From: a virus
Taxonomy: Duplodnaviria; Heunggongvirae; Uroviricota; Caudoviricetes
Length of the DNA stretch: 28,155 nt
Strand: one strand, 5' to 3'
Virus record (IMG/VR): IMGVR_UViG_2547132281_000009
Location: 1 to 28,155 of that record
The notes below the pieces were generated by a model. That model had not been told where the DNA came from. It saw only the letters and a list, made by a program, of their open reading frames with translations, and ran no database searches. The translations under genes and the position numbers were made by a program. This document shows, piece by piece, positions 7,804-27,147 of this stretch. How positions within the stretch are numbered: the stretch's first letter is position 1; every line of letters starts with the position of its first letter.

Positions 7804-8676
7804 TTATTTAATTTCTTTTTCCGGTAAATACATTGTCATTTGAACAGGTTTCTTTCCATAGTGTTGAGCAACTCGACTTCTTAGCTCATGCATGGTGTCG
7901 CATGTTTTTGCGACCCCAATAACCTCCCAGCACCTTGATACAAGCTGCCTTACACCTAGGTTCTCGGTTAACTGTCTATGCCAGTGAACTCCTGCCGCAG
8001 GCTTGTTTTCTTTAAGATATTTAGCCACATCTTCGTCAAGAGTGTCATAAATTAACTCTATAACTAATTTCCCCCACCATTTGGGCCTTGATTGCAATGG
8101 GGTACTCCATCCTGTCAATCTACCAAATTCTTCCCATAACTCATCAGGAAATGTTTTTTCCCATGCTCTTAGTTCCTCAGCGATGAACGCCCTGAGTTTT
8201 ACTTGGAGAGCATCCTCTGCGCGCTCATACTGATACCCAGTAGCCTCATCAATTAGAGCATCTAACCCAGTCCTGGTTAAACCTGCTGTTAATACAGCAC
8301 ATTTAATTGCTATTTCTCGCTGTCTATCTGTCAATGGCGCGCCTTTGTATAGCGCCTGTACATAGCCGCGACAAATCAATTCAAATTGCTCAGTCTTAAG
8401 TCCTTGGCTCTTAAATTGGGTTCCTGGTATGGAAAACTCTATGAGTTCGGCCAGGACTAAGTCTTTGTCTATAAAGCCATTAAGTGAGCTAACGCCAATA
8501 AATTTAGCCAGGTCTCCTGACTCCGCATTGGCAATTGCTTTTACAGTTGCTCGCAAAGCTATAACACGATGTCCAGTGTCAAGCACATAGCAATCAATAC
8601 TTTCACCACCTAAGTCGATCTTCCCCTTCCATTTTGCGAATGGGGATGGTAATTGCTGTAAATCATCATGTTCCAT
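7804..8676 (-). CDS. Unknown-family protein (~290 aa) in the rexAB slot downstream of cI; candidate exclusion/defence gene
   Basis: Long ORF co-oriented with cI; start most likely the ATG at 8676 (AAGGG upstream, 32 nt after cI stop); the ORF-track start at 8772 would overlap the cI coding sequence by 65 bp; no transmembrane segment; no similarity to RexA/RexB. Confidence 0.6.
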   Translation of the reverse strand: MEHDDLQQLPSPFAKWKGKIDLGGESIDCYVLDTGHRVIALRATVKAIANAESGDLAKFIGVSSLNGFIDKDLVLAELIEFSIPGTQFKSQGLKTEQFELICRGYVQALYKGAPLTDRQREIAIKCAVLTAGLTRTGLDALIDEATGYQYERAEDALQVKLRAFIAEELRAWEKTFPDELWEEFGRLTGWSTPLQSRPKWWGKLVIELIYDTLDEDVAKYLKENKPAAGVHWHRQLTENLGVRQLVSRCWEVIGVAKTCDTMHELRSRVAQHYGKKPVQMTMYLPEKEIK

Positions 8677-8707
8677 TAATTGAATTACCCTTTTTTGCTG
8701 CGTTGAA

Positions 8708-9424
<717 letters not shown>

Positions 9425-9761: not shown

Positions 9762-9840
9762 ATCAAATTAAACCACACCTATGGTGTATGCATTTATTTG
9801 CATACATTCAATCAATTGTTATCTAAGGAAATACTTACAT

Positions 9841-10134
9841 ATGGTTCGTGCAAACAAACGCAACGAGGCTCTACGAATCGAGAGTGCGTTGCTTAACAAA
9901 ATCGCAATGCTTGGAACTGAGAAGACAGCGGAAGCTGTGGGAGTTGATAAGTCGCAGATCAGCAGGTGGAAGAGGGACTGGATTCCAAAGTTCTCAATGC
10001 TGCTTGCTGTTCTTGAATGGGGTGTCGTTGACGACGACATGGCTCGATTGGCACGACAAGTTGCAGCGATTCTCACCAATAAAAAACGCCCGGCGGCAAC
10101 CGAGCGTTCTGAACAAATCCAGATGGAATTCTGA
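9841..10134 (+). CDS. cII: CII transcriptional activator (lambda CII-like, 97 aa)
   Basis: [73 protein letters not shown]... matches lambda CII; the ORF-track N-terminal extension from 9781 is upstream read-through. Confidence 0.95.
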
Positions 10135-10166
10135 GGTCATTACTGGATCAATCCACAGGAGTCATT

Positions 10167-10313
10167 ATGACAAAACAACTCAGTCCTTACCAGGACAAAA
10201 TTCACAAACACATACTACGTGATCGCTTCCTGTCCAGCTTCAAGCAGCCTGGTCGATTCCGGGCTGAGTTGGAAAAAGTGAAGCTGATGCAGAAGGAGAA
10301 AGGTCATGAGTAA
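10167..10313 (+). pseudogene. Truncated 48-codon ORF at the position of the replication-initiator (O-like) gene; probable remnant at a deletion junction
   Basis: Starts with the lambda O-type initiation context aggagtcattATGACAAA right after cII, then stops after 48 codons; gp10 follows 113 bp later. Confidence 0.3.
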
Positions 10314-10426
10314 CATATCTAATCTATCCAAACCGTATGCCTGTTGGTAGCGGTAACCAGTTGGCGAAGTGGAACGGTTGGAATTACTTCCACCGGAAGG
10401 AACCTTGCGATAACGGGAGCGAATAA

Positions 10427-11845
10427 ATGCCGATTCAGCAACTTCCGCTTATGAAAGGTGTCGGCAAAGACTTTCGAAACGCCGACTATATCGACTATCT
10501 GCCAGTGAATATGTTGGCTACACCCAAAGAAATCCTGAACAGCAGCGGATATCTTCGCTCATTCCCGGGCATTGCCAAACGTTCTGATGTGAACGGAGTA
10601 TCGCGAGGCGTCGAGTACAACATGGCGCAGAATGCTGTTTATCGCGTGTGTGGTGGCAAGCTGTACAAAGGAGAAAGTGAAGTCGGTGACGTCGCCGGAA
10701 GTGGTCGTGTATCAATGGCGCATGGTCGGACATCACAGGCGGTAGGTGTTAATGGTCAACTGGTCGAGTATCGCTATGATGGAACGGTTAAAACCGTCTC
10801 AAACTGGCCTACAGACAGCGGATTCACGCAGTATGAGTTAGGTTCTGTTCGTGACATTACGCGCTTACGCGGGCGTTATGCGTGGTCAAAAGACGGCACT
10901 GATTCATGGTTTATCACTGACCTTGAAGACGAATCGCATCCTGACAGATACAGTGCACAATATCGTGCCGAGTCTCAGCCTGACGGTATTATCGGCATCG
11001 GAACATGGCGAGACTTCATCGTCTGCTTTGGTTCATCGACGATTGAATATTTCTCCCTGACTGGTGCAACCACAGTTGGTGCTGCTTTGTATGTCGCACA
11101 GCCATCGCTGATGGTGCAAAAAGGCATCGCCGGGACTTACTGCAAAACGCCGTTTGCTGATTCCTATGCGTTTATCAGCAATCCGGCAACGGGTGCGCCG
11201 TCTGTATACATTATCGGCTCCGGTCAGGTGTCACCAATCGCCAGCGCGAGCATTGAGAAAATTCTCCGCTCCTACACTGCTGATGAACTGGCTGATGGTG
11301 TGATGGAGTCTCTGCGATTTGATGCGCATGAGCTGCTGATTATCCACCTTCCGCGCCATGTTCTCGTGTACGACGCATCTTCAAGCGCCAATGGTCCGCA
11401 ATGGTGTGTGTTGAAAACTGGCTTGTATGACGATGTGTACCGCGCTATCGACTTCATTTACGAAGGCAATCAGATAACGTGCGGCGATAAGCTGGAATCG
11501 GTTACCGGCAAATTGCAGTTCGATATCAGCAGCCAGTACGACAAGCAACAGGAACACCTGCTGTTTACTCCACTGTTCAAAGCGGATAACGCCAGAGTTT
11601 TCGACCTTGAGGTTGAATCGTCAACTGGCGTTGCGCAGTATGCTGACCGCCTTTTTCTCTCTGCAACCACTGACGGCATCAATTACGGGCGTGAGCAGAT
11701 GATTGAGCAGAATGAACCGTTCGTTTACGACAAACGCGTTTTGTGGAAGCGAGTAGGGCGCATCAGGAAAAATGTCGGCTTCAAATTGCGCGTTATCACG
11801 AAGTCACCTGTCACTCTGTCTGGCTGCCAGATAAGGATTGAGTAA
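10427..11845 (+). CDS. P22 gp10-like tail accessory (head-completion/tail hub) protein, 472 aa
   Basis: [48 protein letters not shown]... matches P22 gp10 over its length and size (from memory). Confidence 0.85.
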
Positions 11846-13856: not shown

Positions 13857-15206
13857 ATGGCTACGTGGCAACAGGGTATTAATTCTGGTGGTTTTCTGGC
13901 TGGCATTGGTGCGCAAAACGAGAATGCGCCAAAGGCAAAAGACATTAATGCAACGCTTGGCCTGATCCGCGAAAACAATGAACTGGCTCGCTCAGGTGCA
14001 AATAACGTTGGCCTGACCGCGTTACGTGGTCTGGCTGGAGTTGCTGATATTTACAATCAGGAACAGCAACAGAAAGCTATTAGTGCGTTCAATAAGGTTC
14101 ACGCTGATGCATGGGCTTCTGGTGATCCATCGGGACTATTTAAGTTTGCCCAGGAAAATCCAGCGTTTGTTGCACAGGCACAACAGGCGTTTTCTGGTCT
14201 TAATGATCAGCAACGCAACGATATGGGCGATTTAGCCATGAGGGCTAACGTCGCTCTTTCTCAGGGACCGGAAGCCTACAGTAAATTCATTACTGACAAC
14301 AAGGACAGGTTAAATCGCGTGGGGGCGAATGCTGACTGGATGATTCAGACAGGTATCCAGAATCCAGAGCAGCTATCACACATGCTGACTACGATGTCTC
14401 TCGGTGCGCTTGGGCCAGAAAAGGCGTTTGCTGTTCAGGACAAGATGGTTGGTCGCCAGCAGGAGCAGCAAAGAATTAACGAAACCATTCGCAATAATGA
14501 CATGACGAATGCGAGGGCTATTAGGGGGCAGGATCTTTCCTATAAGGCTCAAATGGCAAGACTGAATCACGACAAGTATGTGTTTAAGCAGTCACAGGCG
14601 GCCCTTGAAAGAGCAGGACAACTTCAGGATATGGATGTTTTGTCTCTTAACTCACAGATAGCAGCGACGGGAATTGATCCTCTAACCGGTAAAGCTGCAA
14701 CGTCAGCCAGAATGTCTCAGGCTAAGAGATGGCTTGATGGCAACAATAATTACAACAATGCGTTGATTACTGGTGAGCGAGGGATAGAGAAAATAGATTC
14801 TTTGCTTGGTAAGAAGGAGCTTGAAGGTATCGGTCGCTTCGAAGGAAGAAATATAGATGGCTTCACAAGTGCTGAAGGGCTTGCAAACCGTAATGCGATA
14901 GAAGAATTAAAGTCGGGTGCGTTTGTCCAGAACGTGCAGACTATGCGAGGTATGGGTAGCCTCTCCAATGCTGAAGGCCAAAAACTGGAAAACCTGATCG
15001 CGAAACTCGATATAACACAGCCTGAAGAGGTCGTCAGAAAACAGTTATCTGAAATACGATCTCAATATTCTGTATTTCAAAAGGTTGCAGCAAGGGAGGC
15101 TGAATCAATGGGATACAGTTCATCAGGTTATGACACATATGTTAGTGAGCGAAAATCAGGAAGCGACAGCAATAAGTCCGGTTTCTCGTCTTTATGGGGT
15201 GATTAA
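13857..15206 (+). CDS. P22 gp20-like ejection protein (449 aa)
   Basis: Position in the P22 order; size and composition. Confidence 0.65.
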
Positions 15207-17374
15207 TGGCTAAAGCATGGAAAGATGTTATCGCTTCTCCACAGTATCAGGCGTTAACTGAAGAACAGAAAGCACAGGCTCAAGCGCAATATTTTGATGA
15301 GGTTGTTGCCCCTAAGGCTGGTGACAAATGGGCTGAAGCAAGAGATCAGTTTTATGCAGCATACCCTCCGCCTCAGCAGCAGAAAGAAGAACCATCATTG
15401 ATGCAACAAGCTGGCGATTGGCTCACTGGTGGTCAAAGTGCAGGGCAAATTGCAGAGCAGGCTGGTCGTGGTCTGGTAAACATACCATTTGACGTATTGC
15501 AGGGTGGCGCAAGTCTGATTAATGCAATCAGCCAGGGGCTTGGTGGCCCCAAGGTTTTGGACGATGTCTATCGTCCAGTAGATCGACCAACAGACCCTTA
15601 TGCGCAAGCTGGTGAAACAATTGGTGGGTATCTCCTGCCAATTGGCACAGCGGCAAAAGCTGCTGGAGCGCCAGCAAAGCTCGCTGGAGATATCGGTTCC
15701 GCAGGAAACATGATTGCAGGTTCTCTTGCTGATGCTGCAAATCAGGAGGGCGACTTTGCACAAAATGCTGCCATTAACGGTGGTATCAATATTGGTGCTC
15801 AGGGGATACTTTCTGGGGCTGGAAGGATCTTAACCTCTAAATCACCTCAAGTTCTTGGTGGCGGGGCAATAAATTCCGCTGCTGATGTTTCGAAAATGGC
15901 AAAGTCTGGTACAGGAAGAGAGATTATTGCCAGACAGTCAGCTAATGTGTCAGACGAAATAGCAAAAGCAGCAGATACTGCTGGAATAGATATCAACGCA
16001 TTAACTCCTGGCATGAGATCAGGTAGTCGTGGTCTTGCTCAGGCGGAGGGGATTCTGGCGTCAAAGCCCGGAATTACACAGGATGCACACACCAAAGCAT
16101 TCAGTGAAATAGAGTCGAAATTTAACTCAGCATTGGATGAGTTTGGGGCTGAAGCAGGAACTGCATCAGAAAAAAGTGCAGCCATAAAACAAAGGGTTTT
16201 GGCAAGTATTGATAAAATGAAAAATTCAGAAAAGGCCGCATGGGATAGCGTCCGCTCCACGATGCCTGACGCAAAGGCCAGAATGTCAAACCTGAACGCT
16301 ACAATTCAGGGTGATATTTTGGCTGGCATGCCGCTAACTCCTGAGATGAAACAATTCGCATCTGCTTATGCTAAAACTGGTAAAAAAGGAATCACGTTTG
16401 ATGCCATGAAGGCATGGCGAAGTAAACTTGCTGACGCAGAGCAGAAGTATATAAGGTCTGGTGAGGCAAATACGGCAAGGCGCATGGCTGAGCTTCGTGA
16501 TGCAGCAACGGAAGATATGCGCATAATGGCTCAAAATGGCGGTTTTCTTGATGACTGGCAAAAAGCTAATGATCTGTCAAAGGCAAGATTTACAGCACAA
16601 GAACAGGCTGAAGCAGCGTTTGGTAGAGACCTTGCAACTGATCAGTTGGTAACTAATGGATCTAAGGCGTTACAGGGTTCAGCAAAAAGTGGAACAGGTC
16701 AGTTCCATAAAATAATAAGCGCCCTACCTGAGTCGGAACGCGCGCCAGCAATTGCATCAATATTACAAGATGCAATGTCGCAAGGGGTACGCGGAGGTAA
16801 GTCTGAAGAGGCTGGAATTAAGCATATCGCGACTATTCTTACCCCACAAAACGTGAAGGCAATTAGTCGATATTCTCCAGAACTTGGCAGGATTACAAGT
16901 TCATACGGAGAACTTGCACGAGCAGCAACAAAGCCACTTCGATATGTTGAACAGACAGGGCGATCTATGCCAGCCATTAGCACTCTTGAGAATGGCCTTC
17001 ATCCAGTTTTAGAGAGCGCATTGTCTGGCGCTTTTAGAACTACTGGCACTATCGCAGGGTTCTCTGGAGGAGGCGTTATTGGAGCAATAGCGGGTGGCGC
17101 TGCAGGTGGGGCAATTGATGCAATGGCAAAAGGAGCGATAGCGAAATTATCCGCAACTAGAAGCGGTCGTTACGCTATTGAAAAGGCTGTTCAAGAGGCA
17201 ACAAAGGCAGTTAAGGTTGGGGCAAGTGATGGTGCATTAGCGGCGGCGGAACGCAGATTTATGGCAAATAAGGCCGCCGTAAAAGCAATACGCGAGGCAC
17301 TAGGAAACGAAGAGTTCCAGCGTTTAGCAAGAGCTGGAATTGTGGCATCGCTAAGCGGAATGGCACAGGAGTAA
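15206..17374 (+). CDS. P22 gp16-like ejection protein (722 aa)
   Basis: Position in the P22 order; last gene of the rightward structural block; longer than P22 gp16 as I recall it. Confidence 0.65.
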
Positions 17375-17831: not shown

Positions 17832-18380
17832 TTAGTGTAATCTCTGATCGTCTGAATCGTGTAAGAACTCCATGAGACTTTGAACCGGAATTGGTTCTAT
17901 TGATGATAATGTGAACACAGGAATATTGAGACTTTTGCAACGCTCAAACACTCCCTTATCATGAGTCCATACCTCGTCAGCATTAATTGCTCTTGCAATT
18001 GCTATTATTTGTCTGTCAAACTTAATTTTGTTTGCTGTACCTTCTGTGCTAATTTTCCTTAATTCTTTTAATGTTGGTATCGATGCGCATTCAATAGCAG
18101 CCAACTCATCAAATGATACAGTTTCGAAGCACGATAACGATTTGATAACATTCAGTTTTTCTTGTTGGTAATCTTTATGGATTCCAACTAAAAACTCCGC
18201 CAATACAGGAGTTGGAACGATGATTGTCCCGTTCTTGTTATCTATTCGATCAACAAGAGCTTCTGCTCTTCTTTTGGCATCTGGAATCTCAGAACCAAGT
18301 ATAGGGTCAGATAATCTATAATCGTGTTCTATATCTGATAGTAGGTATACCAGAATATTGGTATCTAAAATTACTCGCAA
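17832..18380 (-). CDS. PIN-domain nuclease-like protein (182 aa)
   Basis: N-terminal MRVILDTNILVYLL with the conserved Asp in the first strand, further acidic residues and a C-terminal WTHD motif, consistent with a PIN fold; TTG start with AGGAAG Shine-Dalgarno, overlapping the upstream stop by 10 nt. Confidence 0.7.
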   Translation of the reverse strand: MRVILDTNILVYLLSDIEHDYRLSDPILGSEIPDAKRRAEALVDRIDNKNGTIIVPTPVLAEFLVGIHKDYQQEKLNVIKSLSCFETVSFDELAAIECASIPTLKELRKISTEGTANKIKFDRQIIAIARAINADEVWTHDKGVFERCKSLNIPVFTLSSIEPIPVQSLMEFLHDSDDQRLH

Positions 18381-19090
18381 TTTATCTTCCTCAGAGTCCT
18401 AAGGATTGAATCAACATCGCGTTCCTCGGACCACTGATCTCCAGGAACTTGCTTGATAGCATTAATAGCATCCTTGAGTGATGATTTTTTGAGCAATACA
18501 AATGAAGTTATTTTTAGTTTCTTTAGCTCCCATTTGTTGTTCTTTTTTTCCCAGCACCCATCTCCTTTAACCCTAATATATTTGAATAGATGGGACCCAA
18601 GAGCTGCCGCCAAATCAGGGGTTGCCTCGCACTTGAATGTTTCACCGTTGGCTCCCTCAATACGCACAGGTATTGAGTTGTCTTTTCCGCCAACACTGTA
18701 TAGCCTTCCTTGAACTTCTGACGTTTTTGTTATGAGTAAAGGGATTGGCTCCTTTTTTACTCGCGGGAATGCGATAATGGTTGAGTGGTTTCGTCCGAGT
18801 AGTTTCGCTGAAAAACCATCATGCTCCAGTAAATTAACAATTTTTTGATACGCGGGTGATTTCTCTTTGGCTGAGAGAGAGGCCCTTGCTATGACAGCGT
18901 TATAACAAATATCATTATCGACCCATGCATTTAAGTCAGCCGATCCTTCACTTACACAGTCGAAGTGAACAGAATCTGCAGAACCGTATAGATCTACGAG
19001 AGCAGACATATACTTGACCAACTTAGCCATTGACAGCTGGCCAGGGGTGGTTCCGTCAAGTTTTAATGTGAGTCCATTGCTTTTTTTCAT
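18371..19090 (-). CDS. Unknown-family protein (239 aa), upstream partner of the PIN-domain gene
   Basis: ATG at 19090; stop overlaps the PIN start (operon); AT-rich; no recognisable motif, no P-loop, no transmembrane segment. Confidence 0.65.
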   Translation of the reverse strand: MKKSNGLTLKLDGTTPGQLSMAKLVKYMSALVDLYGSADSVHFDCVSEGSADLNAWVDNDICYNAVIARASLSAKEKSPAYQKIVNLLEHDGFSAKLLGRNHSTIIAFPRVKKEPIPLLITKTSEVQGRLYSVGGKDNSIPVRIEGANGETFKCEATPDLAAALGSHLFKYIRVKGDGCWEKKNNKWELKKLKITSFVLLKKSSLKDAINAIKQVPGDQWSEERDVDSILRTLRKINCE

Positions 19091-19139
19091 TTGTCATCAC
19101 GCGAGCCAATATCGATATGGTTAACTATACGTCATAAGC

Positions 19140-19394
19140 CTATAACTTACTTTTGCTATAAATATTTTTCAGCGTTTCAAAGACCATCTTCTTAACAACG
19201 TCAGATTGCTCATCCGCGACTCGCTCAGCTTCGTCTCGATAGCCTACAATTGATGATGGCTTTGAGAGAGCATCCTGAACGATTTGTAATAACTCAGAGT
19301 TCATTGACCTTCCGTTAGCCTCGGCTCTTAATTTCAATTTTTCTCTTACTTCCAAAGGCATACGGAAGTTAAAGTGCGGATCATCTCTAGCCAT
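19140..19394 (-). CDS. mnt: Mnt repressor (P22 Mnt-like, ribbon-helix-helix)
   Basis: MARDDPHFNFRMPLEVREKLKLRAEANGRSMNSELLQIVQDALSKPS... closely matches P22 Mnt as I recall it. Confidence 0.85.
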   Translation of the reverse strand: MARDDPHFNFRMPLEVREKLKLRAEANGRSMNSELLQIVQDALSKPSSIVGYRDEAERVADEQSDVVKKMVFETLKNIYSKSKL

Positions 19395-19417
19395 GCCATC
19401 ACTCCAAGTTAGTATCT

Positions 19418-19675
19418 CTAACTTTCGTCTTTATTGTTGCCATACATGCATTTCAACTTCTCAACATCATGTTCAAGATCTATCAATCGTGATGCTATAG
19501 TTGCAAGGTCTAGTGCTTGAATGTGTTTATTTTTTTCGGTCCATGCTTCAAGTGCAGCGACCATCTCAGCATTTAATGAACGAGAATTAGCCTCAGCCAG
19601 TTCAATAAGACGTTCCTTTATCTCTACAGGAAGCCTCAGATTCACTTGAGGGTTTTTGTACTTACGATCAGACAT
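19418..19675 (-). CDS. Second ribbon-helix-helix (Arc/Mnt-family) repressor-like protein (85 aa)
   Basis: NLRLPVEIKERLIELAEANSRSLNAEMVAAL is an RHH fold signature; probable ATG start at 19675 (the ORF-track GTG is at 19681). Confidence 0.6.
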   Translation of the reverse strand: MSDRKYKNPQVNLRLPVEIKERLIELAEANSRSLNAEMVAALEAWTEKNKHIQALDLATIASRLIDLEHDVEKLKCMYGNNKDES

Positions 19676-19721
19676 CGGCACACCCTGAATAATTTTTTAC
19701 CACAGGATATGTAGGTGTCTA

Positions 19722-19761
19722 TTGACTATCAATGCGTACCTAAATACTATGTATGCGTACC
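19722..19761 (+). promoter_or_regulatory. Pant-like promoter (TTGACT, 17 bp, TACTAT) with flanking direct repeats ATGCGTACC (19732-19740, 19753-19761), candidate Arc/Mnt operators
   Basis: Consensus-like -35/-10 with 17-bp spacing upstream of arc; a 9-bp direct repeat brackets the -10 at 21-bp periodicity. Confidence 0.5.
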
Positions 19762-19780
19762 ACATACAGCGGAGGATGCA

Positions 19781-19921
19781 ATGAAGGTAAAAACACTGCG
19801 TATGCCAGAGAAGTTAGAAAAAATCCTTGAAGAGAAAGCAAAGGAAGAGTGTCGATCGTTTAGCGCAGAAGTAATTAAACGGGTGCTGGACAGCTTGAAG
19901 AGAGAGGGGGTGATGGTATGA
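19781..19921 (+). CDS. arc: Arc-like ribbon-helix-helix repressor (46 aa)
   Basis: ATG at 19781 with GGAGGA Shine-Dalgarno; MKVKTLRMPEKLEKILEEKAKEECRSFSAEVIKRVLDSLKREG resembles P22 Arc; first gene of the arc-ant operon. Confidence 0.7.
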   Translation: MKVKTLRMPEKLEKILEEKAKEECRSFSAEVIKRVLDSLKREGVMV

Positions 19922-20121
19922 GTAAAGAATGTTGTTTCTGCGGCATTAGCGAATCAGACACTGATCAAACATACATTTACTCTAAAGAAACAGGTCGGAT
20001 GCTGTGTAGTGACTGCGTGTTGGACATCATAAGATACAAGCATCTTGGATGTTCTGCCAGCATTAGCAATATAGGTGAAGTATACGAAGGGAAAGATATA
20101 ACTGATAGAGCAGAAAGTTGA
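19918..20121 (+). CDS. Small Cys-rich (zinc-ribbon-like) protein, 67 aa, translationally coupled to arc
   Basis: ATG overlaps the arc TGA (ATGA); two CxxC pairs (CCFCG ... CSDC). Confidence 0.45.
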   Translation: MSKECCFCGISESDTDQTYIYSKETGRMLCSDCVLDIIRYKHLGCSASISNIGEVYEGKDITDRAES

Positions 20122-20184
20122 AGCCCCAACTGCTGGAACAGTCAGGGCTTCGGTATCGTAAAACCACGCATAGGAATTAACGAC

Positions 20185-20485
20185 ATGACGAGTGTAGCAA
20201 TTGCAGAACATACAATCAACGTTCCATTCCACGGAACAAATCTCTTTTTGGTCAGCATTAACAATGAACCTTACGTTCCTATGAAACCCGTTGTAGAAGG
20301 CATGGGTATGGTTTGGGCTGCTCAATTTGTTAAATTAAAACAGAGATTTGTCAAAGGTATTTCGGAAATCGAAATACCTTCTGCTGGCGGTAAACAGTTA
20401 ATGATATGCCTTGCCTTTCGTAAGTTTGCGGCTTGGCTTTCAAGCATTCAGCCAAACAAAGTCCGTCCTGAAATCCGCGACAAGG
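20185..20485 (+). pseudogene. ant: Antirepressor Ant, N-terminal part (AntA-type domain), interrupted by IS insertion
   Basis: AntA-like N-terminal domain (VPFHGTNLFLV...EPYVPMKPVVEGMGM); reading frame runs into the IS at 20486 and resumes in frame at 22928. Confidence 0.75.
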
Positions 20486-20556
20486 GTAAGCGTACAGCCT
20501 GAACCGTCTGGTCAGAATCTGACAAATTAGACAAAGTGGTGTCCACCAAATAAGTA

Positions 20557-20958
20557 GTGGGAACCAAAGTGTCAGATATGCAGAAAAATGTGACTCCCGG
20601 CAGGCGAAAAGGCTGCCCTAATTATCCTCCCGAATTTAAACAGCAGCTCGTTGCTGCCTCCTGTGAACCCGGGATATCCATCTCAAAACTTGCTCTTGAA
20701 AATGGCATTAACGCCAATCTGTTGTTCAAATGGCGACAACAATGGCGCGAGGGAAAGCTGCTATTACCTTCTTCAGAGAGCCCCCAGCTACTTCCTGTGA
20801 CTCTCGATGCAGCTGCCGAACAGCCAGAATCGCTCGCAGAGGACCCGGAAACCCTCAGTATCAGCTGTGAGGTAACGTTCCGGCACGGGACGCTCCGCTT
20901 CAATGGCAATGTCAGCGAAAAGCTCCTGACTCTGCTGATACAGGAACTGAAGCGATGA
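20557..20958 (+). CDS. IS66-family accessory protein TnpA (orf1)
   Basis: First ORF of the IS; typical IS66 orfA sequence. Confidence 0.8.
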   Translation: MGTKVSDMQKNVTPGRRKGCPNYPPEFKQQLVAASCEPGISISKLALENGINANLLFKWRQQWREGKLLLPSSESPQLLPVTLDAAAEQPESLAEDPETLSISCEVTFRHGTLRFNGNVSEKLLTLLIQELKR

Positions 20959-21302
20959 TCCCGTTACCTTCCGGGACCAAAATTTGGCTGGTTGCCGGTA
21001 TCACCGATATGAGAAATGGCTTCAACGGCCTGGCTGCGAAAGTACAAACGGCGCTGAAAGACGATCCCATGTCCGGCCATGTTTTCATTTTCCGGGGCCG
21101 CAGCGGCAGTCAGGTTAAACTGCTGTGGTCCACCGGTGACGGACTGTGCCTCCTGACCAAACGGCTGGAGCGTGGGCGCTTCGCCTGGCCGTCAGCCCGT
21201 GATGGCAAAGTGTTCCTTACGCAGGCGCAGCTGGCGATGCTGCTGGAAGGTATCGACTGGCGACAGCCCAAGCGGTTGCTGACCTCCCTGACCATGCTGT
21301 AA
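20955..21302 (+). CDS. IS66-family accessory protein TnpB (orf2)
   Basis: Overlaps the orf1 stop (ATGA); [31 protein letters not shown] is the conserved IS66 orf2 N-terminus. Confidence 0.85.
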
Positions 21303-21351
21303 ATCTCTTTATCCTGGTTGTCACAGAATAAGCCCGGTAAAATACGGGCTT

Positions 21352-22890
21352 ATGAACGACATCTCTTCTGACGACATCTTCCTGCTGAAACAGCGCCTGG
21401 CCGAACAGGAAGCGCTGATCCACGCCCTGCAGGAAAAGCTGAGCAACCGGGAGCGCGAAATAGACCATCTGCAGGCGCAGCTGGATAAACTCCGCCGGAT
21501 GAACTTCGGCAGTCGTTCCGAAAAAGTCTCCCGCCGTATCGCACAAATGGAAGCCGATCTGAACCGGCTTCAGAAAGAGAGCGATACGCTGACTGGTAGG
21601 GTGTATGACCCGGCTGTACAGCGTCCGTTGCGTCAGACCCGCACCCGTAAGCCGTTCCCTGAATCACTACCCCGTGACGAAAAGCGACTGTTGCCTGCGG
21701 CGCCGTGCTGCCCGAACTGCGGCGGTTCACTGAGCTATCTGGGCGAGGATACCGCCGAACAGCTGGAGTTGATGCGTAGTGCCTTCCGGGTTATCCGGAC
21801 GGTACGGGAAAAACATGCCTGTACTCAGTGCGATGCCATCGTGCAGGCACCTGCACCTTCGCGGCCCATCGAGCGGGGTATCGCCGGACCGGGGCTGCTG
21901 GCCCGCGTGCTGACCTCGAAGTATGCAGAGCACACCCCGCTGTATCGCCAGTCAGAAATATACGGCCGGCAAGGTGTGGAGCTGAGCCGTTCACTGCTGT
22001 CGGGCTGGGTGGATGCATGCTGCCGGCTGCTGTCTCCGCTGGAAGAGGCGCTTCATGGCTATGTCATGACTGACGGCAAACTCCATGCCGATGATACCCC
22101 GGTCCAGGTACTGCTGCCGGGTAATAAGAAGACGAAGACCGGGCGGTTGTGGGCGTATGTTCGTGATGACCGCAATGCCGGGTCAGCGTTGGCACCTGCA
22201 GTGTGGTTCGCTTACAGCCCGGACAGAAAAGGCATCCATCCGCAGACTCATCTTGCCTGCTTCAGCGGTGTGCTGCAAGCGGATGCGTACGCCGGGTTCA
22301 ACGAGCTGTATCGCAATGGTGGGATAACGGAAGCTGCCTGCTGGGCTCATGCCCGCCGAAAGATCCACGATGTGCACGTCCGCATCCCGTCAGCACTGAC
22401 GGAAGAAGCCCTGGAGCAGATCGGTCAGTTGTACGCCATAGAGGCGGATATAAGGGGAATGCCGGCAGAGCAGCGGCTTGCTGAACGTCAGCGAAAAACG
22501 AAACCGCTGTTGAAATCCCTGGAAAGCTGGTTGCGTGAAAAGATGAAAACCCTGTCGCGACACTCAGAACTGGCGAAAGCGTTCGCATACGCCCTGAACC
22601 AGTGGCCGGCGCTGACGTACTATGCAGATGATGGCTGGGCTGAGGCGGACAATAACATCGCTGAAAATGCGTTGCGGATGGTCAGTCTGGGCCGCAAAAA
22701 CTACCTGTTCTTCGGTTCGGATCATGGAGGAGAGCGGGGAGCGCTGCTGTACAGCCTGATCGGGACGTGCAAACTGAACGGAGTGGAGCCAGAAAGCTAC
22801 CTCCGCTATGTCCTTGACGTCATAGCCGACTGGCCGATAAACCGGGTCGGCGAACTGCTCCCCTGGCGCGTAGCACTGCCGACTGAATAA
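21352..22890 (+). CDS. IS66-family transposase TnpC (orf3), 512 aa
   Basis: N-terminal leucine-zipper region, CxxC...CxxC zinc motif and C-terminal DDE-type core characteristic of IS66 transposases. Confidence 0.9.
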
Positions 22891-22927
22891 CACATCCCCG
22901 TCAATACGGTTCTTGCTGCACGCTTAC

Positions 22928-23558
22928 CGACAAGGTAATCCAGTATCAGGAAGAGTGTGACGATGTGCTCTACGAGTACTGGACTAAAGGTCATGTAGTT
23001 AACCCACGCAAAGCTAAAAAAGCGTTGCCGGGTAAAATCACCACTGAACAGCAGGAAGCCATTAAACAACTCGTCATGAGTCGCGGTCAGTCTCTACCAA
23101 AAGAAAAACAGGCTAAGGCGATGATCACCATGTGGTCGTCACTGAAATCTCATTTTGGGTGTTCATACAAAGAAATCAGTGAGGAGCAGTTTACCGAAGC
23201 ACTGTCACTTGCTGCTCGCGTTCCGCTCGAAGGTGAGTTCATCGGCAAACAAGAGAAGAAAACCAACGAGCTTTCTGCAAAAGAAGCAAACAGCCTTGTA
23301 TGGTTATGGGATTATGCCAACCGCTCACAGGCATTATTCCGCGAACTGTATCCGGCGCTAAAACAAATTCAATCGAACTATTCCGGCAGATGTCATGACT
23401 GCGGTTATGAGTTCTCCCGTATTATCGATATGGCGAGAGATGTTTTAATCAACCACACACGAGATGTTGATATCAATGAGCCAGACGGACCAACGAATCT
23501 TTCCGCATGGATGAGACTTAAGAATAAAGAATTACCTCCTTCAGTACATAACTACTGA
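22928..23558 (+). pseudogene. ant: Antirepressor Ant, C-terminal part, downstream of the IS insertion
   Basis: In frame with the N-terminal part once the IS and one target-duplication copy are removed (2450 bp); combined length ~308 aa, similar to P22 Ant. Confidence 0.7.
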
Positions 23559-23577
23559 CAGATAACCAACGCAACGA

Positions 23578-23600
23578 CCCAGCTTCGGCTGGGTTTTTTT
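23578..23600 (+). terminator. Rho-independent terminator after ant
   Basis: Stem cccagc/gctggg with ttcg loop followed by TTTTTTT. Confidence 0.8.
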
Positions 23601-23658
23601 ATGCCCAAAATTCATCGTAGCCATGCTTCGGTGATTCCTTGTATCTGGAGCAAATTAA

Positions 23659-25662
23659 ATGACAGACATTACAGCCAATGTTGTAGTGAGCATGCCTTCG
23701 CAACTCTTTACTATGGCTCGTTCTTTTAAAGCCGTAGCTAATGGCAAAATTTATATCGGAAAAATTGACACTGATCCGGTAAATCCTGAAAACCAGATCC
23801 AGGTTTATGTAGAGAATGAAGACGGTTCTCACGTTCCTGTTTCGCAACCAATCATCATTAACGCTGCTGGTTACCCGGTATATAACGGGCAGATTGCCAA
23901 GTTCGTAACTGTGCAAGGTCATTCGATGGCTGTTTATGATGCATATGGTGCACAGCAGTTTTATTTTCCTAATGTGCTGAAGTATGATCCTGATCAGTTA
24001 TCTATAAAACTATCAAGTAATATTGGATACAAATACATTGGAATGGTAGAGAGCGCTAACTCCCTTAAAGATATACAAGGAATGTCGATATCTGATAAAT
24101 TATATTTAAAATCATACGTATCCGGACTCGAACTTGGTGGTGGGTTTGTTGTAGCTGTAGACAAGTCAATTGCAGTTGATAACGTAATGGTTTTAGAAGG
24201 TAACGGTGTAAATTGGAAGAGAATAAACCCAAGCCTTGAGTTTTCTGTATATGACGCTGGTTACAGCGGCGCTGGGGATATTGCATTATTTATTAATAAA
24301 ATAAACTCTCTAGGTTATGATTGCGTTGTCCCATGTAGTGGAGAATTCTCGTCTTTAATTGATATTGATTTCGCGAAGGGTGGGTTAAGAGGAACGAATA
24401 AATGCGTTTTAACTGAGATTAATGGGATATCAGGTGATTATGCAATTAGGTTAAGTAACTCTAATATTTCTTATGATAATAGGGATGAAATAAATGCAAC
24501 ATCAATTTTAGATGGCATATCTTTTAAGATGCTAGGATCTAAAAAGATTTTACTTGGAGGTATTGGCGCTGGTGAATTATCAGAGTTAAGAATAAGTAAT
24601 TCTTCATTCATATCATCTGCTGGAATTGAGTTTCTTGATAATTCATATAGAATTTTATTTGACAAAGTAACAATATCAAGATGTCTAAACAACACAATTA
24701 TATTTAATTCTCCATCAAACTCAGGCGAGGTAATGACATTTAATAATTGTTGGGTTGTTGATAATGGAGGTCCATTGACAATTAGAAATGGTCAATTTAT
24801 TTTTAACTGTTGCTCTATGCCAGCAGGTAAGAAAGAAGGTTATTTTGATTCTACTGTTTTTATTGAAGATAACGCAACCGTTGTTTACTCAAGTGGAAAT
24901 ATTGAGTTTCAGCCAGGTCAAAGCTTTGTGGCGTTCTCTGCATCTGGAAGCACAAGAATAAGCATTAAAGATACAACGCTACTTACTCCCTCTGGATATA
25001 GTTCAGTTCCGTTTGTTGTAAATGATGATTCAGTACTTTCATTAACAAATTGCTCATTGCCTTTATTTGACCAAATGGATTTGGCGACAGGATCAGCAAC
25101 TAGACAGGTAGTTGGAGGTAATAGTAAAAAAATAATGTCATATGGATGCTATCCACGATCTGGATTTATAACAACTCAGTGGGATAAAGGGAACATAGTT
25201 AGTCCATACATAAATTCGCTATCAAATGGAAGTGGACAGTTTTTAAACTACTCTAACTGGAGCCTTCAACAAACTGGTTCAGGTGTTGTTACAGCAGGAA
25301 CGGATTCTGATGTTCCAAATGATATTATGTTTTCCAGGTCTTTGTATGTAGCAATACCATCTATAGGAGCATCTGCAAAATTTTATCAGGAGTGCTCAGA
25401 CTGCTCACCAGGACGATATTTCCAGTTAGGTTTTTGGGCTAAGAATCAAGTGACAACAATCTCTGGTATTGAGTTTTTTGATAAAGAAGGGAACTCTGTT
25501 CAGGGAAAAGCAACATTTACAATTCCACTAGGATCCACATGGAATTTCTACGCATTAATAGATATTGTTCCTCCTGGAGCAAGCAAGGTTAGGATTGATT
25601 TTGATGTTTCCGGTGAAGCAGGCTCTCTTCATTTGCATAATGTTATTTATGGGCTGATTTGA
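23659..25662 (+). CDS. Tailspike protein: P22 gp9-like N-terminal head-binding domain fused to a divergent beta-helix receptor-binding domain (667 aa)
   Basis: N-terminus [59 protein letters not shown]...[13 protein letters not shown]...LKYDPDQ matches the P22 tailspike head-binding domain; the remainder is AT-rich and not P22-like. Confidence 0.9.
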
Positions 25663-25753: not shown

Positions 25754-26911
25754 TCACTCCACCTTTTCATCAAGCCAGTCCGCCCACCACTGCATCATTT
25801 CTCTGCGCTTATCGAGATACTGAGCATGGTTGTAAATACCGCGCACAGATCCGCCGTTGGCATGTGCCAGCTGCACTTCAATAGCGTCAGCAGGCCATTC
25901 GTGCTCGTTCATAATCGTGCTGAATTCATGCCTGAATCCGTGACCGCTTTCCAGACCTTCATAGCCGATTTGTTTGATCACAAGCAATACCGCGTTCTCG
26001 CAGATTGGCTTCTTCTTATCGTTGCGCCCGGCAAAAACAAACTCTGATACTGGTTTGGTGATTGAGCTTAGCGTAGTGAGAAGTTCAACCACCTGGTCTG
26101 ACATAGGAACAACATGAATCTTGCGGCCCTTCATCACACTGGCGTCGATGGTGATAATCCTGTTTTCAAAATCGACGTTCTTCCATTGCATGGAACGAAG
26201 CTCTTTCGTTCTTAGGGCTGTGTAGCGTAAAACTTTGGTCGCAATGAGCGATACGATGCTTCCTGAAAATGTTGCCAGTGCTTTGTTGAATGCAGGGATC
26301 TGGTCTGCTGGAAGAAACGGGAAGTTCTTCTTGCGGTATCCTTTCATGGCGTCTGCAAGGTCAGGTGCCGGGTTATATTTAGCCCTTCCGGTGACAATAG
26401 CGTAACGGAAAACCTCGCCGCATCTTCTGCGGGCTTTGTTGGCTCGCTCCATTGCACCGCGATCTTCAAATCTGCGGATTACTTCCAACAGTTGCATCGG
26501 CTCAATATCCTGAATTTCAAGGCTGCCGATGATGGGTAAAATGTCGTCATCAAACATTTTGGCAAGTTCAGTTGCATAGCCTACTGACCAGACTTGCTTC
26601 TTGTGCTCGTACCATTCCTTGTAAATCGCACTAAATGAATTGTTGTTAGACGAAGCCTTTTTCGCTTTTACCGGATCGATGCCAACCGAGATGTCTTTCC
26701 TCGCGGTCCATGCTTTATCTCTTGCCTCCTGCAAAGTCATAAGCGGATATTTTCCTACGGTCAGGATTTTCTCCTTACCGTCAATCTTGTAGCGAAGCTG
26801 CCATACCTTTTTCCCGGATACAGGGACATAAAGGTACAGGCCATTACCATCGAGAAGGCGGTATGGTTTTTCTTTCGGCTTTGCTGCTTCAATCTGCTTA
26901 ACGGTGAGCAT
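25754..26911 (-). CDS. Tyrosine integrase, P4 family (IntS-like)
   Basis: N-terminus MLTVKQIEAAKPKEKPYRLLDGNGLYLYV and C-terminal catalytic region (HGFRHEF...LAHANGGSVRGIYNHAQY) match CPS-53 IntS-type integrases; an upstream in-frame ATG at 26947 is an alternative start. Confidence 0.95.
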   Translation of the reverse strand: MLTVKQIEAAKPKEKPYRLLDGNGLYLYVPVSGKKVWQLRYKIDGKEKILTVGKYPLMTLQEARDKAWTARKDISVGIDPVKAKKASSNNNSFSAIYKEWYEHKKQVWSVGYATELAKMFDDDILPIIGSLEIQDIEPMQLLEVIRRFEDRGAMERANKARRRCGEVFRYAIVTGRAKYNPAPDLADAMKGYRKKNFPFLPADQIPAFNKALATFSGSIVSLIATKVLRYTALRTKELRSMQWKNVDFENRIITIDASVMKGRKIHVVPMSDQVVELLTTLSSITKPVSEFVFAGRNDKKKPICENAVLLVIKQIGYEGLESGHGFRHEFSTIMNEHEWPADAIEVQLAHANGGSVRGIYNHAQYLDKRREMMQWWADWLDEKVE

Positions 26912-27070
26912 GGGTAAAAATCCGGTGGGTAAAATTATTTTATCCACTTTTTACCCGTCATGGAGTGCGGCTGTCAACGATCTGACGCGAACCATGACGA
27001 ACCGTGAATATACGGAAGGATTGATATTCAGGGGATTTTGCGGACTGGTACGGATGGGAGCGAACTGATA

Positions 27071-27147
27071 AATGGTGTCCCCTGCAGGAATCGAACCTGC
27101 AATTAGCCCTTAGGAGGGGCTCGTTATATCCATTTAACTAAGAGGAC
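27071..27147 (-). tRNA. argW: tRNA-Arg (anticodon CCT), argW; its 3' end forms the attR core
   Basis: Minus-strand sequence GTCCTCT...CTCCTAA...GGTTCGATTCCTGCAGGGGACACCA with acceptor-stem pairing, CCT anticodon and encoded CCA; ends may be off by 1-2 nt. Confidence 0.9.

Follow-up and report, generated by a model that had tools for sequence, protein, structure and literature searches.

This report concerns the antirepressor gene ant of a P22-like prophage of Escherichia coli, which is found in two parts in the IMG/VR virus record IMGVR_UViG_2547132281_000009 (Caudoviricetes); positions 1 to 28,155 of that record were analysed, and this whole stretch of 28,155 nucleotides is called the window below. 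The two parts are separated by an insertion sequence (IS) of the IS66 family that carries three genes, tnpA, tnpB and tnpC, and is bounded by a short direct repeat. The regulators mnt, arc and sar adjoin ant on its upstream side. An initial annotation, made from the letters of the sequence, had already pointed to an IS66-type insertion in this gene.

The interrupted ant gene and the inserted element

When the IS and one copy of the repeat are removed, so that 20185-20485 is joined to 22936-23558, a script check gives 924 nt forming a single 307-aa open reading frame (ORF) with no internal stop, and the continuity of the frame that the initial annotation had described is thus borne out. The restored protein matches both P22_AR_N (PF10547, 7e-40) and P22_AR_C (PF10548, 2.4e-28). 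It is 55% identical to the Ant protein of P22 (E = 6e-116), with identity close to 90% in the C-terminal third, and the two fragments taken separately match contiguous halves of PHROG 'anti-repressor Ant' profiles. Judged by sequence, the interrupted gene is the true ant of immI, as had been claimed, because it combines these two domains with this level of identity to P22 Ant and because mnt, arc and sar lie next to it.

The IS occupies exactly 2442 bp between the repeats (script check) and sits at codon 101, within the N-terminal domain (residues 12-121). As present, the 5' ORF of ant ends at 20502 and encodes a 105-aa product, identical to WP_000204914.1, that consists of Ant residues 1-100 followed by five IS-encoded residues, GKRTA. 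The repeat reads CGACAAGG on both sides, and a script check finds only these two plus-strand copies of it in the window; the chance of an identical 8-mer at two fixed positions abutting the IS ends is about 1.5e-5. The ends of the element, GTAAGCGTACAGCCTGAACCGT on the left and ACGGTTCTTGCTGCACGCTTAC on the right, pair at 19 of 22 positions when the latter is read as its reverse complement, and both begin GTAAGCG. A repeat finder scores them 20/23, since the flanking duplication contributes a G/C pair by chance too. Re-inspection thus upholds the 2442-bp element with GTAAGCG inverted repeats and the perfect 8-bp target duplication. G+C content is 56.8% in the IS against 45.2% in the remaining window.

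Intact alleles agree with this reconstruction. One-piece matches covering at least 80% of the spliced ant occur in 301 genomes, and the ten intact E. coli alleles listed align with it gap-free from end to end at 95.8-97.9% nucleotide identity. The closest allele among the matches listed, from strain 19AR1724, has the site as ...ATCCGCGACAAGGTAATCC... with a single CGACAAGG, and its protein differs by one residue. The exact 307-aa Ant also occurs uninterrupted in public E. coli records, as a sequence look-up revealed. The uninterrupted allele, for which the initial annotation had proposed a search, therefore exists at the level of the protein, and the description of the insertion as simple is sustained by the colinear, gapless alignment with an allele that holds one CGACAAGG.

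We also considered a composite transposon or an IS-mediated deletion at ant; both were rejected, as the flanks rejoin without the loss of one base.

The assignment to the IS66 family is firm. All three genes of the element are intact, co-oriented on the plus strand and above the curated family cut-offs. TnpA is recognized by NF047595, 'IS66-like element accessory protein TnpA', with 97.4 bits against a cut-off of 74 (its start codon was chosen according to the gene calls in public records), and TnpB by NF033819 with 120 bits. TnpC matches NF033517 with 461 bits against a cut-off of 180, and DDE_Tnp_IS66 (PF03050) at 5.7e-106 over profile positions 1-283 of 284. These Pfam and NCBIfam matches to TnpA, TnpB_IS66 and the full IS66 transposase domain set agree with the earlier description of an IS66-type element with three ORFs. 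The exact TnpC protein is present on 399 public contigs, and RefSeq names it 'IS66 family transposase' only. The ATG of tnpB overlaps the stop codon of tnpA in the tetranucleotide ATGA (20955-20958), as read from the sequence; translational coupling of tnpA and tnpB was reportedly described by Han and colleagues in 2001 as a trait of the family. The classic layout of IS66 consists of three ORFs (TnpA, TnpB and the DDE transposase), and the inverted repeats of Pseudomonas members likewise start with GTAAGCG (PMC12888890); the target duplication of the family is 8 bp long (PMC6778807). Each of these classic traits is found here: the order of the ORFs, the DDE domain, an Orf2-type TnpB, the GTAAGCG ends and the 8-bp duplication.

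Features of the ant locus and its host prophage, in window coordinates
Feature	Position	Strand	Basis
Defective P22-like (KplE1/argW-type) prophage, 25.8 kb including the IS	1312-27087	.	15-bp attachment (att) core TGGTGTCCCCTGCAG
Gene 16, 722-aa ORF	15206-17374		Called Phage_P22_gp16 in an identical public contig
mnt, 84 aa, keeps ant silent in the lysogen, apparently intact	19140-19394	-	Pfam Arc and Repressor_Mnt; 81% identical to P22 Mnt
arc, 46 aa, Arc repressor homologue, heads the Pant operon	19781-19921	+	PF03869 Arc; public 46-aa gene call
sar, antisense RNA gene regulating translation of ant, ends immediately before its start codon	20116-20183	-	Rfam RF00262
ant, 5' part: codons 1-100 and first base of codon 101	20185-20485	+	phrog_524 'anti-repressor Ant', positions 7-101
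Target-site duplication, left copy, CGACAAGG	20478-20485	.	Single at the same place in the intact 19AR1724 allele
Complete IS66-family IS, ISEc8 type, 2442 bp	20486-22927	+	Inverted repeats and 8-bp duplication
Left inverted repeat (IRL), GTAAGCGTACAGCCTGAACCGT	20486-20507	+	Same sequence in the O157:H7 ISEc8-family copy
tnpA, 126 aa, helix-turn-helix accessory protein	20578-20958	+	PF01527 HTH_Tnp_1, 1.8e-12; NF047595
tnpB, 115 aa, IS66 Orf2-type accessory protein	20955-21302	+	PF05717 TnpB_IS66, 1.2e-38; NF033819, 120 bits
tnpC, 512 aa, DDE transposase	21352-22890	+	LZ_Tnp_IS66, zf-IS66, DDE_Tnp_IS66, DDE_Tnp_IS66_C
Right inverted repeat (IRR), inward reading GTAAGCGTGCAGCAAGAACCGT	22906-22927	-	19/22 match to the IRL
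Target-site duplication, right copy, CGACAAGG	22928-22935	.	As for the left copy
ant, 3' part: rest of codon 101 to codon 307 and stop, including P22_AR_C	22936-23558	+	phrog_245 'anti-repressor Ant', positions 127-292

Relation to ISEc8 and copies of the element elsewhere

ISEc8 is a member of the IS66 family that was described from E. coli O157:H7. The comparison with it was made through an O157:H7 copy annotated by the PGAP pipeline as 'IS66-like element ISEc8 family', and the IS in ant is 97.5% identical to this copy at the nucleotide level, with no gaps. The two elements have the length of 2442 bp, the three-ORF layout and the IRL in common, their TnpA and TnpB proteins are 100% identical, and the O157:H7 copy is flanked by an 8-bp target duplication too. 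They differ in TnpC, which is 97.3% identical with 14 of 512 residues changed, and in the IRR, with 5 differences over 22 nt. The mismatches are far from evenly spread: 52 of the 60 fall in the last 420 nt (22507-22927), a part that includes the 3' end of tnpC and the IRR, where divergence is about 12% as opposed to about 0.4% elsewhere. This pattern suggests that the right end of the IS is recombinant and derived from another relative in the IS66 family.

The thresholds that ISfinder applies to isoforms are at least 95% nucleotide identity over the element and at least 98% amino acid identity of the transposase. The comparison with ISEc8 that the initial annotation had advised therefore gives a divided answer: at 97.5% the nucleotide identity to the O157:H7 copy is high, but TnpC, at 97.3%, remains under the 98% of the rule. 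Because TnpC is below that value in this comparison, we prefer the label 'ISEc8-type' to ISEc8. The IS looks like an ISEc8-type mosaic or a borderline isoform, a name given by comparison with the annotated O157:H7 copy.

Matches to the IS are widespread, occurring in 4060 of 5426 complete E. coli genomes, and 317 records have a copy of at least 99% identity. Full-length copies that are 100% identical are present on the chromosome of the enterotoxigenic E. coli (ETEC) strain H10407, on plasmid p666 and in other strains. Among the strains with near-identical copies (0 or 1 mismatch over 2442 bp) are TW10722 and ARS-C301, along with the H10407 chromosome and p666, and three of the four such copies that were examined have perfect 8-bp duplications of their own, GCACAAAT, GTATCCTC and GGTAAAGG. 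They differ from the copy in the window in their sites, which are a fimbrial usher gene, a P-type ATPase gene and plasmid DNA; none of them lies in ant. Identical copies, in ETEC strains among others, with fresh and differing duplications at unrelated sites indicate that this ISEc8-type isoform is probably mobile at present.

Two observations on individual copies may be added here. The chromosomal copy of ETEC H10407 (2303981-2306422), although 100% identical, is without an 8-bp duplication. The 3' end of a different tnpC gene of the IS66 family is no more than 32 bp away from it, an arrangement suggestive of nesting or rearrangement of IS66 elements at that locus. The O157:H7 ycjG site and the site on p666 of H10407 are unrelated and yet have the same duplication, GCACAAAT, and the same 10 nt on the left, CAGCACAAAT. 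This may be target preference or chance.

Distribution and interpretation of the insertion

One has to consider whether a repeated IS was misplaced in a draft assembly, the more so as multi-copy ISs often break or mis-join short-read assemblies, and two of the contigs with the insertion (one of them the Logan assembly of ERR119526) end inside the IS. However, an exact-sequence look-up of the truncated 105-aa product, and with it the left junction, finds five contigs, one of which exceeds 1 Mb; the product is an annotated protein in a record named E. coli TW14425, and the longest contig that bears it measures 4.94 Mb. Contig AELE01000004.1 (GCA_000166615.2) matches the window with 100% identity along stretches of 12.3 kb and 18.2 kb, and the insertion is also present in GCA_002458215.1 and in the Logan assembly of ERR119526. 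Moreover, a mis-join would not yield the two junctions together with a perfect 8-bp duplication and a reading frame that is restored exactly. An assembly artefact is therefore hardly conceivable, because the same junction is 100% identical in independent assemblies. On this evidence the insertion is genuine, and it is fixed in one clone.

Outside that clone the junction did not turn up. In 5426 complete RefSeq E. coli genomes no place matched 80% or more of a left-junction query, which shows the insertion to be missing from this set, and the exact 30-nt junction pattern had no match in the GTDB species-representative genomes. A look-up of the 67-aa ORF that lies between arc and sar recovered this insertion from two NCBI assemblies and from a Logan read set. 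An isogenic empty site was not found among the relatives that share this ORF, in which the IS-free members all carry an antirepressor of the type KilA-N plus P22_AR_C. The initial annotation had called the insertion recent. This stands in so far as neither the IS nor either half of ant shows decay; on the other hand, at least three assemblies or read sets have the insertion in common, and it is fixed in the clone.

The Logan contig of ERR119526 has a peculiarity of its own. In it, window position 2686 is joined directly to 12488, with no homology at the joint, and this further loss of 9.8 kb takes the early-left genes, the repressor, cII, gp10 and part of the needle gene. The joint reflects either continued decay in a sister isolate or an error of assembly.

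In our opinion it is very probable that an active ISEc8-type IS66 element transposed into codon 101 of ant in a P22-like prophage at argW of E. coli, and that this was likely a neutral step in the decay of the prophage. From what is known of the family, the DDE transposase TnpC, with TnpA and TnpB, would have cut the target with a stagger of 8 bp and joined the GTAAGCG ends to it, and repair of the stagger would have produced the duplication of CGACAAGG. The insertion cuts P22_AR_N, leaving a 105-aa stub under the control of Pant, Arc, Mnt and sar and a 3' fragment that would have no promoter. Because the N-terminal domain is cut and the C-terminal part lacks a promoter, we infer that Ant is almost certainly inactive. 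The prophage lost its replication, late-regulation, lysis and head genes either before the IS arrived or afterwards.

One may ask whether the split gene still works, that is, whether the 197-aa C-terminal ORF (22965-23558), which contains P22_AR_C, is expressed by read-through or from an outward promoter of the IS and binds repressor. The IS is indeed co-oriented with ant, and the 296-aa antirepressors of the relatives, with KilA-N in front of P22_AR_C, illustrate that the domains are modular. But a promoter scan of 19000-23800 found none in or near the right end of the IS, its only matches being Pant/Pmnt and one minus-strand site in ant, and the 197-aa ORF starts at a GTG within what is usually the N-terminal domain. 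A sequence search of solved structures with restored Ant, aimed at its repressor-binding domain, gave no match. Residual function of this kind is extremely unlikely.

The other question is whether the loss of Ant was selected. P22 Ant inactivates C2 as well as the repressors of L, lambda and 21, the last two being among several heteroimmune phages whose repressors it affects (PMC3121763), so the remark in the initial annotation about lambda-type repressor has support in the literature. Loss of so broad an antirepressor might spare the cell an accidental induction of lambdoid prophages residing with it, or of the toxic early genes of the prophage itself, and so stabilise polylysogeny. In the remnant the cI-type repressor (8708-9421) is indeed still intact, N and the early-left operon are kept, and degraded ant genes recur in P22-like phages (PMC2629481). 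Against this, ant should be silenced already by Mnt, Arc and sar, none of which is damaged, the insertion is confined to one lineage, and chance alone is expected to bring ISs into non-essential prophage genes. We regard such selection as unlikely. Most likely the insertion belongs to the decay of the prophage, was neutral with respect to selection and came to be fixed in a single clone, because ant is silenced by Mnt in the lysogen, because Ant was reported as dispensable for induction and for lytic and lysogenic growth in P22 (PMC3121763), because Mnt, Arc and sar are intact, and because the prophage is defective.

Nothing contradicts the structural side of the account of an ISEc8-type insertion into ant, which is confirmed. 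Several points do weigh against the account as a whole. Its functional part, including the inactivity of the 105-aa stub and of the 197-aa C-terminal ORF, is what we infer from the sequence. A single lineage cannot separate neutrality from selection. The IS and the deletion in the prophage occur together in all assemblies in which the IS was found, so that either event may have come first, and the same prophage with an empty site but otherwise identical was not found among the sequences searched, the nearest intact nucleotide allele listed being 97.9% identical.

A less ordinary twist would be that read-through from Pant (the IS is co-oriented and begins 293 nt into the Pant transcript) ties expression of the transposase to derepression of immI, or else that the knock-out was selected against the induction of co-resident lambdoid prophages. 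We consider this pair of ideas very unlikely. Mnt, Arc and sar normally keep Pant shut. If read-through did operate, expression of the ISEc8 transposase would follow derepression of immI, for example upon superinfection or loss of Mnt.

Otherwise the case is an ordinary one of an already known sort: a known type of IS, inserted in its usual mode, in a dispensable gene of a defective prophage. Its importance beyond annotation is small. It provides a textbook example of a simple IS66 insertion with exact reconstruction of the empty site, and one step in the decay of a P22-like prophage. For annotation, 20185-23558 should be described as a single IS-interrupted ant pseudogene and not as two 'antirepressor domain' proteins, and the ant::IS junction can serve as a clone-specific lineage marker.

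The immI neighbourhood and the defective host prophage

The surroundings of ant resemble immI of P22 in gene order and orientation between gene 16, which lies upstream of the ant region, and the tailspike (head-binding domain) gene downstream of it. The sar gene scores 81.2 bits against a gathering score of 43 over model positions 1-68 of 68 and aligns with the sar region of P22. Divergent promoter-like sites are found at the expected position of Pant/Pmnt, with a plus-strand site at 19722-19750 upstream of arc. The region differs from that of P22 in the splitting of ant by the IS and in an extra Arc-family gene and an extra 67-aa ORF; further differences are a PIN-domain gene pair in place of sieA and an argW/IntS/TorI integration module.

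The extra Arc-family gene (19418-19681, minus strand) encodes a second ribbon-helix-helix protein, lies between mnt and Pant and is without a P22 counterpart. The extra ORF of 67 aa (19918-20121, plus strand), between arc and sar, is Cys-rich, belongs to phrog_7150 of unknown function and likewise has no counterpart in P22. Both are conserved in relatives with a different type of antirepressor. Five relatives, found via the 67-aa ORF, have arc and this ORF followed by a 296-aa antirepressor in which KilA-N replaces P22_AR_N in front of the same P22_AR_C. Read from the sequences, this exchange of KilA-N and P22_AR_N is domain shuffling in antirepressors. The slot of sieA is occupied by genes for a PIN-domain protein of 182 aa (17832-18380, minus strand) and an overlapping 239-aa protein of unknown function (18371-19090, minus strand), and in the relatives by a YafO-toxin pair instead; the PIN-domain pair may be toxin-antitoxin or exclusion cargo. 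Nothing significant emerged when the cargo genes nearby, among them the PIN pair and the P63C-domain protein described below, were scanned with PADLOC.

The ant region has been described as the most variable part of the late operon, with the highest genetic flux, and HK620 and Scho1 carry degraded ant genes (Villafane et al. 2008, PMC2629481). As in the 'ant moron' of these two phages, the antirepressor has been lost here from an otherwise P22-like late region. The difference is that one clean and in principle reversible IS insertion is responsible here, whereas deletion or point decay is responsible there.

The host prophage is defective, a point that the initial annotation missed. The window extends from cscB (1-870) to yfdC, and the prophage is bounded by att cores TGGTGTCCCCTGCAG at 1312-1326 and 27073-27087, the latter being the 3' end of tRNA-Arg(CCT), argW. 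The integrase gene is at 25754-26947 on the minus strand; IntS adjoins the tailspike and TorI lies at the opposite end, as in relatives. The cI-type repressor is intact (HTH_3 and Peptidase_S24). Beyond cII (9781-10134), gene O is represented by its first ~20 nt, which near 10325 run directly into the final ~100 nt of gene 4, and gp10 starts at 10427, downstream of this joint (joint region 10131-10426). The deletion removed the replication, nin, Q, lysis, terminase, portal, scaffold and coat genes. With the late promoter and Q both lost, normal transcription is no longer available to the tail, ejection and tailspike genes that remain.

The right breakpoint of the deletion, |ATCCAAACCGTATGCC, coincides to within 2 nt with that of another remnant prophage, found in E. 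coli CUVET19-1937. The left breakpoint of that remnant is in the small terminase gene, i.e. it is a different deletion with one shared endpoint.

Lambdoid phages often carry exclusion genes in the slot downstream of a cI-type repressor. Directly downstream of the repressor here is a P63C-domain ORF of 322 aa (7804-8772, minus strand; phrog_2384, of unknown function), which overlaps the repressor ORF by 65 nt as listed. Finally, a second exact fragment of argW, the 16 nt GGAATCGAACCTGCAA of the T-arm region (equal to 27087-27102), is present at 1620-1635, just inside the prophage beside torI and separate from the att core at 1312-1326.

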